Source: a virus (lineage: Duplodnaviria > Heunggongvirae > Uroviricota > Caudoviricetes). From it: a DNA stretch of 10,789 nt. The notes beneath the pieces are model-generated. The model did not search any database. It had not been told where the DNA came from and worked only from the letters and a program-made list of their open reading frames with translations. The stretch covers positions 1-10,789 of the IMG/VR virus record IMGVR_UViG_2917849834_000008; one strand, written 5' to 3'. Below are positions 2,260-10,789 of the stretch, in pieces. Each line of letters begins with the position of its first letter. The first letter of the stretch is position 1. Both the position numbers and the translations under genes were made by a program.

Positions 2260-2278
2260 GTGCTTTCCCCGCCTCGCC
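2260..2278. other. cos: Phage cohesive-end site (cos), P2-type 19-nt sequence, present in joined form
   Basis: gtgctttccccgcctcgcc at 2260-2278 is the exact reverse complement of GGCGAGGCGGGGAAAGCAC, which I recall as the 19-nt P2 cohesive end. It sits between the Q 3' end and the old/tin-equivalent region, as expected for a prophage or circular form. Confidence 0.6.
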
Positions 2279-2565
2279 CGCCCGCTTCGTGAGGCGGTTT
2301 TAATGCACTTGCATGAATGGCCTAAAGTACGCCAGTTCTGACACTGCAAAGTTAGAAAATGCCTGACAGGCACATGCAAAATGATGCATCAAATGAATTC
2401 ATACTGAAATAACCCCCCAACCACATAGCTAAGCATCCACATCTTTACATCTAACTCACTAAATTCTCTTGAATAAATCAAAAAGTTAGGTTAGATCTCT
2501 GTCGTTGAGGAAGGCAACCTCGAACACTTAAGGCTAAATATAAAAAGAATAAAAAGAGGGATAAA

Positions 2566-2853
2566 ATGAAATTAAAACTCAAAAACGTAACAAGCTATCA
2601 TAAAGAATATTTTACTGAGTTAGATTTATCCAAAAAAATAAACATATTGTATGGACAAAATGGTTGTGGAAAATCTACCATATCAAATTATTTTTACAAT
2701 CCTAAAGACACCGCCTATAAGGAATGTGTATGCGAACCCATCGATAATTATCGAACTCTAGTCTACAACTCAAAATATATAGAAGATAATTTTTATAATG
2801 CAAAAGAGCAAAAAGGTATATTTACCCTCAGTCAAAAAAAATGCAGAAATTGA
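2566..2853 (+). CDS. N-terminal fragment (Walker A / P-loop) of an AAA_13-like ABC/SMC-type ATPase, RloC-like; frame broken at an A8 tract
   Basis: Good SD (aagaggg, 2554-2560) 5 nt before ATG 2566. Translation contains the P-loop GQNGCGKST. Only 95 aa, then stop at 2851-2853; the downstream ORF in the -1 frame carries the rest of the ATPase motifs. Very AT-rich, unlike the flanking phage genes. Confidence 0.6.
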   Translation: MKLKLKNVTSYHKEYFTELDLSKKINILYGQNGCGKSTISNYFYNPKDTAYKECVCEPIDNYRTLVYNSKYIEDNFYNAKEQKGIFTLSQKKCRN

Positions 2854-4775
2854 AAAAAATACTATCTGAAAAAGAAGAGCTAAACAAATCACTAGCACAT
2901 CAGCATAAAGAAAAAAAAGAATTTATCGAAAAACTTCATGAAGCGAAAAACAAAAAAGAGCAAGAGTGCATAAATTCCATATGGAATAAGACCAAAGACA
3001 TAAGAAGTTCAGAATTAAAACAATTAATGAAAGGTCAAATAGGAAGCAAAGCCACTTTCTATTACCATCTAAAAAAGTATACTCCACAAACTGATATTGA
3101 TATAAAATCATTAATACAATCTTATAGCAAACTTCTCGAGTTTAAAGGAAAAGAAATACCTCTGATAACTCCTTATAAAGGATATGTTTTATCTGAAGAA
3201 ACTCAAAAAACATTATCCACACCAATTATTGACTCTAGCAACAGCTATTTATCTGAAGCAATAAAAGAGCTACAAAATATTGATTGGATTAAACAAGGCA
3301 AAGAGCAATATTTAAATGGAGAAATTTGTCCATTTTGCCAAAGGGACACAATAGATGATAATTTTATTAAAGCCATTGAATCTATCTTTGATGAAACATA
3401 CTCAAGAAAAGTAGATCAAATACAACAAATAAAACTATCTTATGATAATGCCATTAAAAATCATCATGAAGAAATAAAGAGTAACATTTTATCATGTGAG
3501 GTGATAAACCAAGACGAAAAAGATAAAAGTCTTTCATATGTTAAGGCGTTAGAAACTATTGCAGAAAAAAACATTAAATTATTGGATAATAAAATAGAAA
3601 ATCCATCTATAAGCATTGTGCTGGAGTTTGAAAAGTCGATAGAGGAAAAACTATTAGAAGATATAGAACAATACAACAATAAAATTAACGAGTTCAATGA
3701 CAAAGTAAAAAGATTTAATAATAGCGAAATAGATATTCGCGAAAAGATGTGGGCAGCAATCAGAGACTTATGTAGCGCGGAATTTGAAATACTATCAGAC
3801 TGCGAAAGAAACTTTCAAGAAAAATATGAAAACGCTGCATCCTTCATGCAGGAAATAAAAAGAAAAGAAGAGATCAACACAAATGAAATCAATGAACTAA
3901 GAAATAAAACATCAAGTGTAGATGCAACAATAGATGCAATAAACTCACGACTTAAATTTCTTGGCATCTCTGGTTTTAGCATTGATAAACACGCCGAACT
4001 CAAAGATAAGTATATAATATCCCGCGATGGAAACAATAGAAAACAAGATGTATATCGGTCATTAAGCGAAGGTGAAAAAACATTAATAACGTTTCTATAT
4101 TTTTTAGAATGTTGCAAGGGTAAAACAAATGAAAATGATAATGATATGCGTGATAAACTCATAGTTATAGATGATCCTATATCAAGTCTATCTCAAAACT
4201 ATGTTTTCGACATAGCATCCATGATCCATCATGACATAATTGAAAAAGGCATTTCATCAAAAATAATAATCCTCACCCATAATCTTTATTTCTTCCATGA
4301 GTTAATAAAACTCGCCTCTAAAAAAGGAATAAACTTTAAACGGGACTACTTTCTTGGCAGAATAAACAAAAATGAATTTAGCACCATTAGTGCTATAGAT
4401 AAAAAAAGTGTGCAAAATGAATACCAATCCCTTTGGCAAGTATTAAAAGATGCAAAAGAGAAAAAAATCAACAAAATAATAATCCCAAATATTATGAGAA
4501 ATATACTTGAGTATTACTTTGCATTTGTTCATAGAACTGACGCATTAGAGGAAAAGCTTACTGAATTAACAAATGATGAAAATAACAGCCATTTCCGTGC
4601 CTTTTACAGATATATAAACAGAGGCTCTCACTCCGACGCAATAAATATAACAGACATGGGCGATATTGAACCTGAGAAATACTTAGAACTCTTGCACAAA
4701 ATATTCAGAATGACTGGTGATGAGAAACATTACTTAACAATGATGGGTGAAGAAGAGGTAAATGTTACCGCTTAG
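2841..4775 (+). CDS. Main part of RloC-like AAA_13 ATPase: coiled coil with CxxC zinc hook, ABC signature-like and Walker B motifs, C-terminal putative anticodon-nuclease-like domain
   Basis: 644 aa ORF. Lys/Glu-rich predicted coiled-coil region (aa ~1-400) with CPFC at aa 163-166 (nt 3327-3338). LSEGEK (aa 408-413), DKLIVIDDP (aa 438-446) and ILTHN (aa 477-481) match ABC-type signature / Walker B / H-loop. C-terminal ~150 aa contain MRNILEYYFAFVHR...SHFRAFYRY. This frame is open from 2799 and overlaps the upstream ORF across the A8 tract 2834-2841. Confidence 0.7.
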   Translation: MQKLKKILSEKEELNKSLAHQHKEKKEFIEKLHEAKNKKEQECINSIWNKTKDIRSSELKQLMKGQIGSKATFYYHLKKYTPQTDIDIKSLIQSYSKLLEFKGKEIPLITPYKGYVLSEETQKTLSTPIIDSSNSYLSEAIKELQNIDWIKQGKEQYLNGEICPFCQRDTIDDNFIKAIESIFDETYSRKVDQIQQIKLSYDNAIKNHHEEIKSNILSCEVINQDEKDKSLSYVKALETIAEKNIKLLDNKIENPSISIVLEFEKSIEEKLLEDIEQYNNKINEFNDKVKRFNNSEIDIREKMWAAIRDLCSAEFEILSDCERNFQEKYENAASFMQEIKRKEEINTNEINELRNKTSSVDATIDAINSRLKFLGISGFSIDKHAELKDKYIISRDGNNRKQDVYRSLSEGEKTLITFLYFLECCKGKTNENDNDMRDKLIVIDDPISSLSQNYVFDIASMIHHDIIEKGISSKIIILTHNLYFFHELIKLASKKGINFKRDYFLGRINKNEFSTISAIDKKSVQNEYQSLWQVLKDAKEKKINKIIIPNIMRNILEYYFAFVHRTDALEEKLTELTNDENNSHFRAFYRYINRGSHSDAINITDMGDIEPEKYLELLHKIFRMTGDEKHYLTMMGEEEVNVTA

Positions 4776-5002
4776 GCCGCATATTACCGATTCGGGTAAG
4801 AACGACGGTGCTTACGCACCGTCTCCCAGCGCCCAAAGCGGTAGCGGTTGTACTGTCGTACATTCACTAACCTTAACATGAGATTATCTCCATGCCGGCA
4901 CCATTGTTGCCAATGGCAGCCTTTATACCCTTTGTATAAAGCTAATACTAAGAGCATTGCTAGGTAGATTTCCCAAGCGGTAACGTGGGTATTCTAAGAC
5001 AA

Positions 5003-7291
5003 TTACTTAAAAAGATCAAAGCCACTAAAAAACTGCTTCCACTCACCACTTATTGGATATATAAACTTTCGTCCGTCAAACTTTACCGTCGCGCCACGCG
5101 CCAGCGCCTCAAGCTCCCATCGCTGCGGCCTGATACCGTTCTGAGCAAGGTCAACGCGGATACGGGTAATTTGCATTCTTTCCGACCGGGTCAGTCTGGC
5201 CGATGGTGCAATTTCATGTGGTTTTAACGGGCTTCCGTTTCTTTGCTGACGGTTTGGCGTTCTCAGGTCGTGTTTTAATGCGCCCCTGAGCGCCCTCACG
5301 ACCTCCGGTTCACTCCATTCAATAACACCGTCATCAACCAGATTAAGCACTGCTGCGGCGTGCTCAGAAGGTGTGGGAGCCGATAACGAAGTATTACCGC
5401 CGGTGAGCTTTCCACAGTTATTGACAGGACTCCGAGGCGCGGCGATGCCGCTTTTTAAAGTCAAAGGCTCAACGACCGGAACTTTCGGCACAATGCGCCA
5501 GTCCGTCGTTCTGGTGATATGAATATGACGCGCGCCGAGATGCGGCGCGTAAATGCCGACCACTCTCTCGACTTCTTCCTCGTACTCGTTAACGTCATCC
5601 GACGTGCTACGGGCAACCCTGACAGTCTGACAATCGCGCGGGACATTTGCCCCGCCCTGCGCGCTGATATACAACGCAAAATCACCACTGTCTGCGGCGG
5701 CGCGTGCAGCCTCGACGCGTTCGTCAAACTCATCAGCAATGCTGACGCCGCGAGGCAATTTGCGTAGTTCACGGTAAGCCCCCATTGTCGGCAGACCAAC
5801 CGTTTTAAATTGCGGAATGCGCCACGTTGACGCCCATGCGGTAACAGCCGCAGCAGTATCTTTCAGCGGCCTGCCGGTATCGTTATCGAGCTGACCATCC
5901 AGTGCATAGCCATCGATGTTTTTTGAGATGTATTTCGCGATATATCCCGCAGCACCGCCCCGGTTAAGGTGTTTTGCCTGAAAACGGTTTCGCGCGGCTC
6001 CTCTTTCGTCGCCATCCTCTTTGAGCGCATAGCGACGCATGATTTCGATAATCTGGTTACGCTGGCGTGGATTACAAAAAAGCATCATATGCCAGTGCGG
6101 CGTTCCGTCGTGGTGTGGCTCGACGACACGCAAACCGTAGACCTGTAAATCATTATCCTTGAATGCCGTGCGCATCAGGCTCCAGATATGGCAGAGATAA
6201 CGCTGCGCATCCTTTGGATTAAATGCCTCATCGTTCCAGCCGTGATTTAGCTGGACGGTTTTACTTTCGCCTTTTCCGACCTGACGTGTCGGGTGATACT
6301 TTGACGGCGTGGTCAGCGTGATAAACATCCCCACATCACCCTCTGCGGCGGCGTAACGCTCAATACCGGCAATGGTGTTCATCAGCTCCATCCGGCGAAT
6401 TTCAGGATTAGAAATACTGCCCATCACCTTACTGATAAGGTCGATGCGCTCGCCGGTTTCCCTGTTTTCAAGGTCACACGATTTAAGAAATTCCAGATTT
6501 GCCTGGCGGCGCGCACGCACATCACGAATGGCGTGTTTACTGGCATAAGGAGAACGGTCTTTATTGACCTCCCCGACAGCTATCAGTAACGCTTCATGCC
6601 AGCGCATACGCTGGCCTTTAAGCTGATGAGTCCACCACTCATCGTTAAACAGACGGGCAATTGCAGAATATGCCTGCCTCGTGGTCATCTGTCCTTTACG
6701 GTATTTTTTCCAGTAGAGAGGGGAAATATTGAAAGCACGTGCAGCGCCAGCAACATGACCATAGAGGTGAGCCTGCGCCTCATCCGTAAACAGCGATTCT
6801 TTTTCGCCATGCGCATCCCCCCAGGCATCGCTGAGTTCCTCATACATCATGAAAAGCTGCGATGAGATACGGGCAGCAAACTTTTTCAGCTCCTTGTCAT
6901 TCATTCCCGGCAGGCGCGCATAGTGGTCACGCTCTGCCAGAAACAGTAACGACGCGTCGGTGTTCATTTCATGGCGCTGATTCACACGCTCAATGCGCGG
7001 CCATAAACGACGCTGAAAAGTGGATGTGAGGAAATAAAACCCGTGCACCGGGCTTTTATTGCGCCGGATGTAGTCATAGCGTGAAGTAAACAGCGAACGC
7101 AAAAAGTAAGGCAGGCGGTTAATCGTGGATAAAACACCTTGCACCTGACGCATCTCGTCACGTGTAAGGGGTCTTTCGCGCCCGACGGCCTCGCGTGGCG
7201 CGTTCCATGCATAAGCACCGGTAAACGTCTTACCGGTGCCTGCGGCAAATGCTGACGGAGGGACAAAACGCCCGGAGGCTTTAACGGCCAT
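5003..7291 (-). CDS. A: Replication initiation protein, P2 gpA-like rolling-circle initiator
   Basis: Large minus-strand ORF (track 5003..7333, 776 aa with a TTG start at 7333). The first ATG at 7289-7291 starts MAVKASGRF, which I recall as the P2 gpA N-terminus, and gives ~762 aa. Contains the HxH-like segment PHHDGTPHWHMMLF. Located between the cargo and the B/cox region as in P2. Confidence 0.85.
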   Translation of the reverse strand: MAVKASGRFVPPSAFAAGTGKTFTGAYAWNAPREAVGRERPLTRDEMRQVQGVLSTINRLPYFLRSLFTSRYDYIRRNKSPVHGFYFLTSTFQRRLWPRIERVNQRHEMNTDASLLFLAERDHYARLPGMNDKELKKFAARISSQLFMMYEELSDAWGDAHGEKESLFTDEAQAHLYGHVAGAARAFNISPLYWKKYRKGQMTTRQAYSAIARLFNDEWWTHQLKGQRMRWHEALLIAVGEVNKDRSPYASKHAIRDVRARRQANLEFLKSCDLENRETGERIDLISKVMGSISNPEIRRMELMNTIAGIERYAAAEGDVGMFITLTTPSKYHPTRQVGKGESKTVQLNHGWNDEAFNPKDAQRYLCHIWSLMRTAFKDNDLQVYGLRVVEPHHDGTPHWHMMLFCNPRQRNQIIEIMRRYALKEDGDERGAARNRFQAKHLNRGGAAGYIAKYISKNIDGYALDGQLDNDTGRPLKDTAAAVTAWASTWRIPQFKTVGLPTMGAYRELRKLPRGVSIADEFDERVEAARAAADSGDFALYISAQGGANVPRDCQTVRVARSTSDDVNEYEEEVERVVGIYAPHLGARHIHITRTTDWRIVPKVPVVEPLTLKSGIAAPRSPVNNCGKLTGGNTSLSAPTPSEHAAAVLNLVDDGVIEWSEPEVVRALRGALKHDLRTPNRQQRNGSPLKPHEIAPSARLTRSERMQITRIRVDLAQNGIRPQRWELEALARGATVKFDGRKFIYPISGEWKQFFSGFDLFK
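5421..5440 (-). other. ori: Putative origin of replication (gpA nick site) inside the A coding region
   Basis: ttgacaggactccgaggcgc on the + strand is the reverse complement of GCGCCTCGGAGTCCTGTCAA, which I recall as the P2 ori nick region. The P2 ori is known to lie within gene A. The match is exact but the reference sequence is from memory. Confidence 0.45.
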
Positions 7292-7556
7292 GTGAGCCAA
7301 AAGCCTCTGAACAACGCTTGCTGAGTTGCTCAACCTGCGCGTTTAAATCAGCAAAAGATTTTGCGCTTCCGGTCAGAATATCGTGATGCATCATGCCGGA
7401 AACGAGCTGGCTTAATTTCGGGTAATAACCAACCACCGCCAGCCATTCCTGACCGGCGTTTTTACCGCTTTCCGCTCTCTTTTTCTCGTGGAGAATAAAC
7501 TGAAAGCTGTCACTGGTAACGACATAACGTTCGCCAATGTCAATACGAATACTCAT
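7281..7556 (-). CDS. Hypothetical protein; by position corresponds to the small ORFs between B and A in P2 (orf83-like)
   Basis: 91 aa ORF with ATG start; its stop overlaps the A start region and its start overlaps the upstream ORF stop by 4 nt (ATGA). Composition matches neighbouring phage genes. Confidence 0.55.
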   Translation of the reverse strand: MSIRIDIGERYVVTSDSFQFILHEKKRAESGKNAGQEWLAVVGYYPKLSQLVSGMMHHDILTGSAKSFADLNAQVEQLSKRCSEAFGSHGR

Positions 7557-9739: not shown

Positions 9740-9808
9740 CTCTATATAAAGATTACATTTTCACCATTTGCTACCAAGATGGTGAATACAGCGCCGGAGG
9801 GCTTTCTT

Positions 9809-10789
9809 ATGGCAATTAAGAAGCTCGATGATGGTCGCTATGAAGTGGACATTAGACCTCGCGGTCGCGACGGAAAACGCATCCGCAGGAAATTCGAAAG
9901 AAAAGCTGAAGCACTAGCATTTGAGCGATACACAATCGCCAATGCCAGTCAGAAAGAATGGGGAGGCCAGCGAGCAGACCGCCGAACTTTGAGTGAGTTG
10001 CTGGACATCTGGTGGAAATATCACGGGCAAAACCACGAGCATGGAACAAAAGAGTTTAATCATCTACTCAAAACCATCAGCGGCATAGGTGATATACCAG
10101 TGAGCCGGATGAGCAAAAGGGCTTTGATGGATTATCGTTCCATGCGACTACGTGATGGTATCAGTGCCGCAACGATAAACCGTGACATGTACCGATTATC
10201 CGGCATGTTCACAAAATTAATTCAATTGGATGAATTTTCCGGGCAACACCCAATTCACGGACTGCCGCCACTGGCGGAGGCCAACCCTGAAATGACGTTC
10301 CTGGAAAAAGCAGAAATCGAAAAACTGTTAAATGTTTTGGCTGGTGATGACTTACTTGTCGCGCTTTTATGTCTGAGCACTGGAGGAAGATGGACGGAAG
10401 TTGCCACGCTAAAACCAGCACAGATTACAAATTGCAGGGTTACCTTCCTGAAAACCAAAAACGGTAAAAAGCGAACCGTGCCGATTTCTGAGGAACTGGA
10501 GAAAAAAGTTAAAGAGGAGGCCAGCGCCAAATTATTCAAAGTTGATTATGAGAAATTTTGCGGGATTTTACGCAGAGTGAAACCTGATATACCACCCAAT
10601 CAGGCAACCCACATCCTGCGGCATACATTCGCAAGCCATTTCATGATGAATGGGGGCAATATAATCGCACTGCAACAGATTCTGGGACATGCGAGCATTC
10701 AGCAGACGATGGCCTATGCGCACCTTGCGCCTGACTACCTGCAAAATGCCGTCGCTCTGAATCCACTAAAAGGCGGAGTGACGTTATAA
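9809..10789 (+). CDS. int: Tyrosine site-specific integrase, P2 Int-like
   Basis: ORF track gives 9779..10789 (336 aa). The ATG at 9809 (MAIKKLDDGRYEV...) is preceded by a strong SD ggaggg (9796-9801) and is the more likely start. C-terminal catalytic region has the tyrosine-recombinase pattern ...ATHILRHTFASHF...LGHASIQQTMAYAH. The stop coincides with the last base of the window, so attL/attR core should lie just beyond. Confidence 0.85.
   Translation: MAIKKLDDGRYEVDIRPRGRDGKRIRRKFERKAEALAFERYTIANASQKEWGGQRADRRTLSELLDIWWKYHGQNHEHGTKEFNHLLKTISGIGDIPVSRMSKRALMDYRSMRLRDGISAATINRDMYRLSGMFTKLIQLDEFSGQHPIHGLPPLAEANPEMTFLEKAEIEKLLNVLAGDDLLVALLCLSTGGRWTEVATLKPAQITNCRVTFLKTKNGKKRTVPISEELEKKVKEEASAKLFKVDYEKFCGILRRVKPDIPPNQATHILRHTFASHFMMNGGNIIALQQILGHASIQQTMAYAHLAPDYLQNAVALNPLKGGVTL

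Follow-up and report, generated by a model that had tools for sequence, protein, structure and literature searches.

An RloC-family gene with two frameshifts in the cos-proximal hotspot of a P2-like prophage

Introduction

The closest described systems to the locus reported here are the RloC proteins of Geobacillus kaustophilus (GkaRloC, 804 aa) and Acinetobacter baylyi (AbaRloC) (Davidov & Kaufmann 2008; Klaiman et al. 2012 and 2013). RloC was originally defined by ABC motifs, a CX2C zinc hook within a helical insert, and a nuclease triad of the form Arg-X3-Glu-X36-52-His, in which a Ser often precedes the His (Davidov & Kaufmann 2008; PMC2610378). Mutation of the triad abolished both nuclease activity and toxicity; a mutant in the zinc hook was hyperactive (PMC2610378). 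The GkaRloC nuclease is activated by ATP hydrolysis and DNA, its Walker A mutant K44A is nuclease-null, and RloC is switched on in vivo by DNA-break inducers.

Several other systems share part of this architecture. PrrC, the tRNA-Lys anticodon nuclease of E. coli, joins an ABC-type NTPase to the same C-terminal triad (R320/E324/H356), but it is ~400 aa long, lacks a coiled-coil/zinc-hook insert and is kept silent by the type I restriction-modification locus (hsd/prr) in which it lies. Rad50, SbcC and SMC proteins have an ABC head split by a coiled-coil insert, with a CX2C hook, but no C-terminal RNase domain. P2 Old, the canonical occupant of the hotspot considered here, is a single-gene exclusion factor that combines an ABC-type ATPase with a TOPRIM nuclease.

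RloC genes at the P2 site have also been catalogued. In the 2008 RloC table, no. 51 is an orthologue from E. coli APEC O1 flanked by 'phage replication initiation, capsid' (Davidov & Kaufmann 2008), and a 2013 survey of HEPN domains mentions 'PrrC/RloC/APECO1_4465 ... also found in prophages' (Anantharaman et al. 2013). In Table S5B of Rousset et al. 2022, 'AAA_13, RloC-like' (no. 5) ranks fifth by frequency among the systems of the P2 hotspot, having been counted 420 times; their Table S5A contains WP_023146974, an allele 99% identical to the one described below.

Results

We analyzed a 10,789-nt stretch of a Caudoviricetes sequence (IMG/VR record IMGVR_UViG_2917849834_000008), hereafter called the window, whose features are listed in Table 1. 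The P2 cos 19-mer lies at the left edge of a variable module that extends to gpA. The same 19-mer string is present in cloned P4/P2 cos-region sequences (Rousset et al. 2022, Table S2A). Homology to the APEC O1 prophage backbone stops near position 2316, and the GC content falls from about 54% to about 30% at the start of the module, which has 27-33% GC compared with 50-59% in its flanks. The first-pass annotation had described an RloC-like gene as the sole cargo of a P2 hotspot, and we indeed found no other gene between cos and gpA. Its borders are formed by gpQ and cos at one end and by gpA at the other. Phage P2 carries old and tin at the same hotspot. The 10.8-kb window contains no hsd genes. 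Annotated E. coli genomes served to establish the context of the gene. A consensus promoter scan between cos and the ATG (upstream of 2566) returned no site, and a consensus scan of the plus strand past the gene returned no terminator-like site.

Table 1. Features of the window, in order of position
Feature	Position (nt)	Strand	Remark
P2 cos 19-mer (minus-strand sequence GGCGAGGCGGGGAAAGCAC)	2260-2278	-	Exact match; left edge of hotspot
AT-rich upstream part of variable module	2317-2565	+	Shine-Dalgarno-like GAGGG before ATG
rloC-family gene (AAA_13 / PADLOC PDC-S06)	2566-4775	+	735 aa once repaired; two +1 frameshifts here
Walker A / P-loop GQNGCGKST (G30-T38)	2653-2679	+	In 95-aa fragment only
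Helical (coiled-coil-type) insert, predicted, residues 88-465	2827-3962	+	Between Walker A and ABC signature
Frameshift 1: A8 run, A7 in intact relatives	2834-2841	+	Frame ends at TGA 2851-2853
Frameshift 2: A7 run, A6 in relatives	2853-2859	+	Only this assembly among those examined
CX2C zinc-hook motif CPFC (C254-C257)	3327-3338	+	Loop near middle of insert
ABC signature LSEGEK (L499-K504)	4062-4079	+	L499 to E503 invariant in 28 homologues
Walker B DKLIVIDDP	4152-4178	+	D-loop (ISSL) directly downstream
H-loop / switch histidine IILTHN (H571)	4266-4283	+	H571 invariant in 28 homologues
C-terminal anticodon-nuclease (HEPN-type) domain, predicted	4290-4772	+	
Putative triad residues R644 and E648	4497-4511	+	
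Putative triad residues S687-H688	4626-4631	+	
gpA	5003-7333		Right of variable module

As annotated in the first pass, the gene appears in the window as two ORFs, 2566-2853 (95 aa) and 2841-4775 (644 aa). These had been read as one protein across a single frame break; the single protein stood, with a length of 735 aa, whereas the break proved to be two +1 insertions of an A. All six aligned close E. coli relatives have A7 and A6 at the two runs, with neither insertion, and this alignment ruled out a repair at one junction, which would mistranslate about six residues. Over both repaired tracts the correct reading is GIFTLSQKNAEIEKILSEKEEL. Intact homologues are 2208 nt long and 99% identical in nucleotide sequence to the window gene, and the repaired protein and WP_028132552.1 are identical but for 4 residues. 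We also rejected a split-protein or two-gene system, as the point where the two ORFs meet interrupts a domain that runs unbroken through all homologues.

Profile searches placed the protein in the AAA_13 family from end to end. The 95-aa ORF matched Pfam AAA_13 (PF13166) at model positions 7-91 (E = 6e-15, 55.3 bits) and the 644-aa ORF at positions 94-712 of 713 (E = 2e-82, 278.6 bits), and an intact homologue scored 349.5 bits over positions 9-712 of 713, the gathering threshold being 36 bits. Because the model covers both ORFs at these E values, the motifs named below are not chance matches. The PADLOC PDC-S06 model PDLC04886 aligned residues 2-728 to its positions 4-724 of 727 (844.6 bits, E = 2.3e-254), and the PADLOC PrrC model aligned to residues 434-716 (5.7e-16). 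NCBIfam offered no specific model, its sole match being a sub-threshold ABC-transporter model; more distant homologues carry the JGI and NCBI name 'wobble nucleotide-excising tRNase'. A PDB sequence search with the protein gave no match at E <= 0.01, and one with a profile of 28 homologues gave only P-loop regions and coiled coils of SMC, Rad50 and AriA, with no PrrC or RloC structure. A search from a Bacillaceae homologue (P0065) toward GkaRloC found no Geobacillus protein among the best 120 matches. The window protein is linked to GkaRloC by way of the APEC O1 orthologue and of the motifs that define RloC in the literature, rather than by a direct alignment.

We then assessed conservation in 28 homologues with identities down to 19%. 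GQNGCGKST, LSEGEK, DKLIVIDDP and ILTHN, the ATPase motifs singled out in the first pass, were all located, the first exactly at the nucleotides where it had been placed. In Walker A, residues G30, N32, G35, K36 and T38 are invariant, as are I534, D535, D536, P537, S539 and S540 of Walker B and the D-loop. The proposed Lys/Glu-rich insertion corresponds to 378 residues, 26% of them Lys or Glu, and is predicted to form long helices of the coiled-coil type (residues 91-141, 276-309, 315-344, 356-401 and 403-447 in the AlphaFold2 model). Between long helices, the model places a loop (residues 251-263) containing CPFC, a putative zinc hook in which C254 and C257 are invariant, likewise the upstream W240 and G244. 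This motif had been missed earlier. The full-length model has a mean pLDDT of 78.7, and in Foldseek it matches best, among PDB entries, the coiled-coil-bearing heads of Rad50 and SMC proteins (E = 1e-7).

The C-terminal extension, previously estimated at ~150 aa, comprises 163 residues after the H-loop. Its putative triad has the spacing R644-X3-E648-X39-H688, with S687 just before the His, and N641, R644, E648, S687 and H688 are invariant in the 28 homologues. The loop bearing the putative catalytic His (residues 686-696) was modelled at pLDDT < 50, and a check for the all-alpha HEPN fold and its Arg...His motif gave weak evidence for the fold. The extension had been suggested to make the protein an uncharacterised variant with its own C-terminal domain; the predicted nuclease domain is instead of the standard PrrC/RloC type and not a distinct variant. 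Judged by its sequence, the repaired protein is an RloC-family AAA_13 ATPase with a C-terminal effector, as first proposed, and has every sequence feature of the original RloC definition.

Residue by residue, K44, C291 and D572 of GkaRloC correspond to K36, C254/C257 and D535/D536 of the window protein, and the GkaRloC triad R692/E696/H737 to R644/E648/H688. Like RloC, the window gene stands alone, and no silencer is linked to it; it differs from GkaRloC in encoding a shorter protein (735 aa), in being prophage-borne and in being frameshifted. The APEC O1 orthologue WP_000423308.1 (738 aa) is 58% identical over its full length (E = 0), has all motifs in common and occupies the same P2-like prophage site, from the portal gene gpQ to the replication gene gpA. 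It belongs, however, to a separate allele group (~70% nucleotide identity) and is intact. WP_000423308.1 agrees in strain, length and flanking genes with RloC no. 51 (YP_852004), which we infer to be the same protein, and it probably corresponds to the prophage subgroup that the 2013 survey calls 'APECO1_4465'. Rousset system no. 5 is the PADLOC candidate PDC-S06, which shares family and hotspot with the window gene; both are catalogue entries only, whereas the window copy is most likely a pseudogene. Membership in PrrC was ruled out by the CPFC-bearing insert and by the absence of restriction-modification linkage, and the PrrC model aligns only from residue 434 on. In contrast to Rad50, SbcC and SMC proteins, the window protein has a C-terminal domain of predicted RNase type and a much shorter coiled coil, and its locus has no Mre11/SbcD partner. 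It also differs from Old, which occupies the same locus, in having a predicted HEPN-type anticodon nuclease and a zinc-hook coiled coil.

The window copy lacks the intact reading frame expected of a functional RloC, and it is most likely a non-functional pseudogene. The first insertion (A8) was found alone in an independent assembly (L007) with a diverged, 97%-identical P2 backbone, where cargo allele and phage backbone both differ from those of the window. Among 13 complete genomes carrying the allele, 10 copies are intact and 3 are broken by other lesions. Independent damage close to these sites in relatives comprises a nonsense mutation, a slip in a further poly-A run and the insertion of IS5 with a deletion. 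Three independent frameshifts (in A7, A6 and A8 runs) and one nonsense mutation fall within ~85 nt (window positions 2834-2918). The gene, at ~30% GC, has 13 homopolymer runs of at least six bases. Both window lesions lie in homopolymers, where sequencing errors also cluster.

Discussion

We consider it likely, with a probability of about 0.8, that an RloC-family abortive-infection system made up of one gene has decayed in the cos-proximal hotspot (gpQ-gpA) of a P2-like prophage, and that this copy is non-functional. The mechanism that we infer, with its fold, trigger, tRNA target and anti-phage role, follows published work on Geobacillus and Acinetobacter RloC. In an intact protein, a Rad50-like ABC-ATPase head, its halves held apart by a coiled coil with a CX2C zinc hook at the tip, would keep the C-terminal HEPN-type ribonuclease silent. 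DNA ends or breaks arising during phage attack or genotoxic stress would increase ATP hydrolysis and thereby switch on the nuclease, which would cleave tRNA anticodon loops with excision of the wobble nucleotide; the ensuing halt in translation may abort the infection. In the window copy, the +1 insertion in the A7 run would halt translation after 95 residues, P-loop included, and the second, 19 nt downstream, would leave the 644-aa ORF without Walker A or a ribosome-binding site.

The two lesions are probably genuine. If the extra A's were sequencing or assembly errors, the strain would have an intact, functional 735-aa rloC-type gene. This is unlikely, even though both differences are one-base changes in homopolymers (A8 and A7), a classic site of error, the second was found only in the window assembly, and most complete-genome copies are intact. 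Against it, records of this contig exist for 4 samples, A8 recurs in another assembly on another cargo allele and phage backbone, the other long homopolymers in coding regions of the window agree with relatives, no other window gene is frameshifted, and the independent lesions in relatives show that the gene does decay. We give very little credence to the idea that expression is switched at the poly-A runs, where slippage during transcription or translation, or a reversible change in tract length, would let a toxic defence gene occasionally yield full-length protein at a low level or in a phase-variable manner. The clustering of lesions and the change from A7 to A8 on two backgrounds would suit such a switch, as would the fact that one further A in the first tract joins both ORFs with about six residues altered. 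Runs of 6-8 A's, however, are short for efficient slippage; given ~30% GC and 13 runs in the gene, lesions in runs are expected by chance; the lesions of other relatives, a nonsense codon in one case and IS5 plus a deletion in another, are irreversible; and most copies are in frame, the sample numbers being tiny.

It is equally improbable that we are dealing with a defence ATPase of the SMC/ABC type that has some effector other than a tRNA nuclease, perhaps a DNA-directed or partner-dependent one, as in Lamassu LmuB, PARIS AriA or Septu PtuA. The LmuB, AriA and PtuA models do match weakly in the N-terminal 40 residues, the structural neighbors include Lamassu, AriA and retron ATPases, and the nuclease fold is weakly evidenced; yet these model matches are confined to the P-loop region or lie far below the PDC-S06 and PrrC scores, the module has no partner gene, and the invariant R-X3-E...S-H triad agrees, also in its spacing, with the active site validated by experiment in RloC/PrrC. 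Also very doubtful, if a little less so, is a further proposal that the poly-A cluster at codons 90-118 is a hypermutable, mutational on/off switch by which a P2-like prophage could turn a self-toxic RloC-type nuclease off, and perhaps on again, and, separately, that the trigger or tRNA target of this clade is unlike that of GkaRloC. If the switch were real, hypermutability and not coincidence would explain why the change from A7 to A8 recurs on two phage backgrounds.

Taken as a decayed RloC-family gene, the locus carries little weight as a discovery. The first-pass annotation identified the family correctly, but its claim of a novel arrangement was wrong: RloC at the P2 cos-proximal hotspot was on record in 2008, recurs in the 2013 survey and was counted in 2022, and this copy is broken. 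The finding is thus correct yet ordinary, because the family has been catalogued at the P2-like prophage site since 2008. The sequence of the RloC-like system is absent from the table of cloned and tested systems of Rousset et al. 2022, and our literature searches on PDC-S06 and on RloC (2021 onward) returned catalogue mentions only, with no functional test. They found no tRNA-cleavage or phage-defence test for the enterobacterial prophage RloC clade and no report of any RloC blocking a phage. Intact alleles such as WP_023146974.1 would therefore offer a convenient native E. coli test system.

That the gene has been inactivated several times independently agrees with a fitness cost of carrying it. 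The intact alleles would suit a test of Kaufmann's model, in which a Rad50-like, DNA-break-sensing switch drives wobble-nucleotide excision.

A frameshifted RloC-family gene in a P2-like prophage

The window encodes two ORFs on the same strand, of 95 and 644 aa, between the gpQ and gpA genes of a P2-like prophage (see table). Pfam AAA_13 was matched by the 95-aa ORF over model positions 7-91 (E = 6e-15) and by the 644-aa ORF over positions 94-712 of 713 (E = 2e-82). Because these matches are collinear, the ORFs are two pieces of one gene, as the first-pass annotation had proposed from consecutive ATPase motifs; a sequence check found every motif that it named where it had been placed, and these are not chance matches.

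Features of the prophage segment and lesions of the cargo gene (window positions)
Feature	Position	Strand or remark
gpP terminase gene, C-terminal part	82-1056	
gpQ portal gene	1056-2090	
Terminator-like hairpin	2094-2120	directly 3' of gpQ stop codon
19-nt P2 cos sequence	2260-2278	minus strand
AT-rich module	between gpQ and gpA	
Short ORF, 95 aa	2566-2853	same strand as long ORF
Long ORF, 644 aa	2841-4775	same strand as short ORF
Walker A GQNGCGKST	2653-2679	
LSEGEK	4062-4079	
DKLIVIDDP	4152-4178	
IILTHN	4266-4283	
57-aa ORF	4784-4957	minus strand
gpA replication gene	5003-7333	minus strand; early genes come after
Integrase	9779-10789	
Single-A insertion, window	2834-2841	A8 run
Single-A insertion, window	2853-2859	A7 run
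EcPF15 lesion	2874	nonsense, GAA to TAA
JNE21-009 lesion	2911-2918	one A lost from A8 run
MS 198-1 lesion		IS5 insertion and deletion

The cargo gene was found at 99% nucleotide identity and at the same gpQ/gpA site in 12 complete E. coli genomes, and the intact copies of these relatives are 2208-nt ORFs encoding 735 aa. Aligned to relatives, the window carries two single-A insertions, in tracts that are A7 and A6 in 6/6 relatives aligned; the first-pass annotation was right that the reading frame is broken but had counted one break. Across the repaired tracts, the native reading is ...GIFTLSQKNAEIEKILSEKEEL..., and the repaired protein differs from WP_028132552.1 at four residues only, all nonconserved.

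Contig PDIA01000039.1 of draft assembly GCA_004745155.1 begins with the window sequence and is on record in four samples. The first insertion, without the second, is also found in GCA_036613095.1 (L007), where it leaves ORFs of 95 and 658 aa. That assembly and the window share only 97% identity in the P2 backbone, and the cargo allele of that assembly is closer to the intact reference of STW0522-31 than to the window allele. No other window gene was frameshifted relative to relatives. The four-sample record, the recurrence of the first insertion in a second assembly and the intact neighboring frames argue that both lesions are real, to which we assign a probability of about 80%.

The 95-aa product contains the P-loop and little else, and the 644-aa ORF lacks Walker A and has no Shine-Dalgarno sequence ahead of its ATG. 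As the Walker A mutant K44A of Geobacillus RloC is nuclease-null in vivo, these defects predict that the window copy is dead, and it is most likely a pseudogene.

Of the 13 complete genomes with this allele group, 10 have an intact copy; in the other three (EcPF15, JNE21-009 and MS 198-1) the copy is broken (see table). The additional A in the A7 run is present on two phage backgrounds (the window and L007). Counting these two, four different small, independent lesions (a gain of one A in each of the A7 and A6 runs, the nonsense mutation at 2874 and the loss of one A from the A8 run) fall within 2834-2918, in the first part of the coiled-coil region. Because the cargo gene has 13 homopolymers at least six bases long, this clustering is no more than suggestive.

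Family identity of the intact gene

An intact homologue matched Pfam AAA_13 at 349.5 bits (cutoff, 36), the PADLOC phage defense candidate family PDC-S06 over its full length at 844.6 bits and, over residues 434-716, the PADLOC PrrC model (E = 5.7e-16); the first-pass annotation had expected models of the AAA_13 and PrrC types. An exhaustive HMMER scan yielded 3272 representative clusters at E ≤ 1e-3, 876 of which passed the stricter cutoff of E ≤ 1e-30, and nearly all of the best 150 matches listed were collinear proteins of 710-790 aa, which establishes a large family. Its distant members (28-31% identity) carry the JGI and NCBI name "wobble nucleotide-excising tRNase." In an alignment of 28 homologues with identity down to 19%, the invariant columns were G30, N32, G35, K36 and T38 in the P-loop; W240, G244, C254 and C257 in the insert; LSEGE (499-503); IDDPxSS (534-540); H571; N641, R644 and E648; and S687 and H688.

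RloC is characterized by ABC-ATPase motifs like those of PrrC, a CX2C zinc hook within a coiled-coil insert and a C-proximal Arg-X3-Glu-X36-52-His, the His often preceded by Ser (Davidov and Kaufmann, 2008). All three features can be recognized in the sequence of the repaired protein, whose C-proximal motif is R644-X3-E648-X39-S687-H688. Together with the AAA_13 and PDC-S06 matches, they bear out the earlier identification of an RloC-like AAA_13 protein. Moreover, the experimentally validated residues K44, C291, D572, R692, E696 and H737 of Geobacillus RloC are collinear with K36, C254/C257, D535/D536, R644, E648 and H688. Membership in PrrC was rejected, since the protein has a 378-residue insert and its gene is not near a restriction-modification locus.

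The full-length AlphaFold2 model (mean pLDDT, 78.7) shows a long helical insert with beta-rich head segments at either end and the CPFC motif in a loop close to the insert middle. The top Foldseek matches of the model in the PDB were heads of Rad50 and SMC proteins (E = 1e-7 to 1e-4; probability, 1.0), with low TM-scores, as expected for an elongated molecule.

Location and prior record

An exact copy of the 19-nt P2 cohesive-end (cos) sequence, GGCGAGGCGGGGAAAGCAC, lies between gpQ and the cargo gene, and the window therefore covers the cos site of the integrated prophage. Backbone homology to the APEC O1 prophage is 92-96% until ~2316 and resumes from ~4752-4775, and only the cargo gene and its 250-nt AT-rich leader lie between. 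The edges of the variable module are 2317 and 4752-4775, identity falling from ~92% to ~30-60% past ~2316 and reaching ~94% again near the cargo stop codon. GC content is 27-33% in the module versus 50-59% in the flanks. The cos-proximal hotspot, which separates gpQ from gpA, thus has no cargo other than this gene; in P2 itself the hotspot is occupied by old and tin.

The hairpin after gpQ (GCCGCCTGCGGGCGGC and then T6) is strong, so the late operon probably does not read through into the cargo gene. In gpQ, a compensated indel pair 7 nt apart (1795-1802) gives QGKPDG in the window and QGKADG in two relatives, and the portal ORF remains intact at 344 aa. The putative 57-aa ORF, in conserved backbone between the cargo gene and the gpA 3' end, is unannotated in RefSeq relatives, and L007 has a 14-bp tandem duplication (CTAGGTAGATTTCC) in the backbone downstream of the cargo gene, at the equivalent of 4959. 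Mechanical ORF calling starts gpA at a TTG and gives 776 aa; the gene is called as 762 aa on the same contig and in relatives, and the true start is probably 14 codons downstream.

The first-pass annotation suggested an uncharacterised variant, but the family is already recorded at this site. In the 2008 RloC paper, Table S1 includes the entry [quoted passage not shown] and the APEC O1 genome has a 738-aa AAA-family ATPase between the portal gene and gpA, 58% identical to the cargo protein over its full length. A 2013 HEPN survey has the family entry "PrrC/RloC/APECO1_4465 ... also found in prophages." Rousset et al. (2022) analyzed the same hotspot, where "AAA_13," annotated "RloC-like," is system no. 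5 with 420 occurrences; their Table S5A includes WP_023146974.1, an allele encoded in four of the complete genomes matching the window at 99%. An RloC-like gene at the P2 hotspot is therefore known. The sequence of this system was not found in their table of cloned systems, and our literature search found no functional test of this prophage clade, or of RloC generally as a phage defense system. Some E. coli genomes match the cargo family at two separate places at ~64% identity (matches H53 and H54), and thus one strain can hold more than one RloC-like gene.

By analogy with the RloC family literature, the Rad50-like head and zinc hook of an intact protein would form an internal switch; in published RloC work, mutating the zinc hook short-circuits the switch, and DNA-break inducers activate RloC in vivo. 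The nuclease would be activated when ATP is hydrolyzed with DNA present, and would then excise the wobble nucleotide from the tRNAs that it targets. An intact copy carried by a P2 lysogen could plausibly serve in abortive infection against superinfecting phages.
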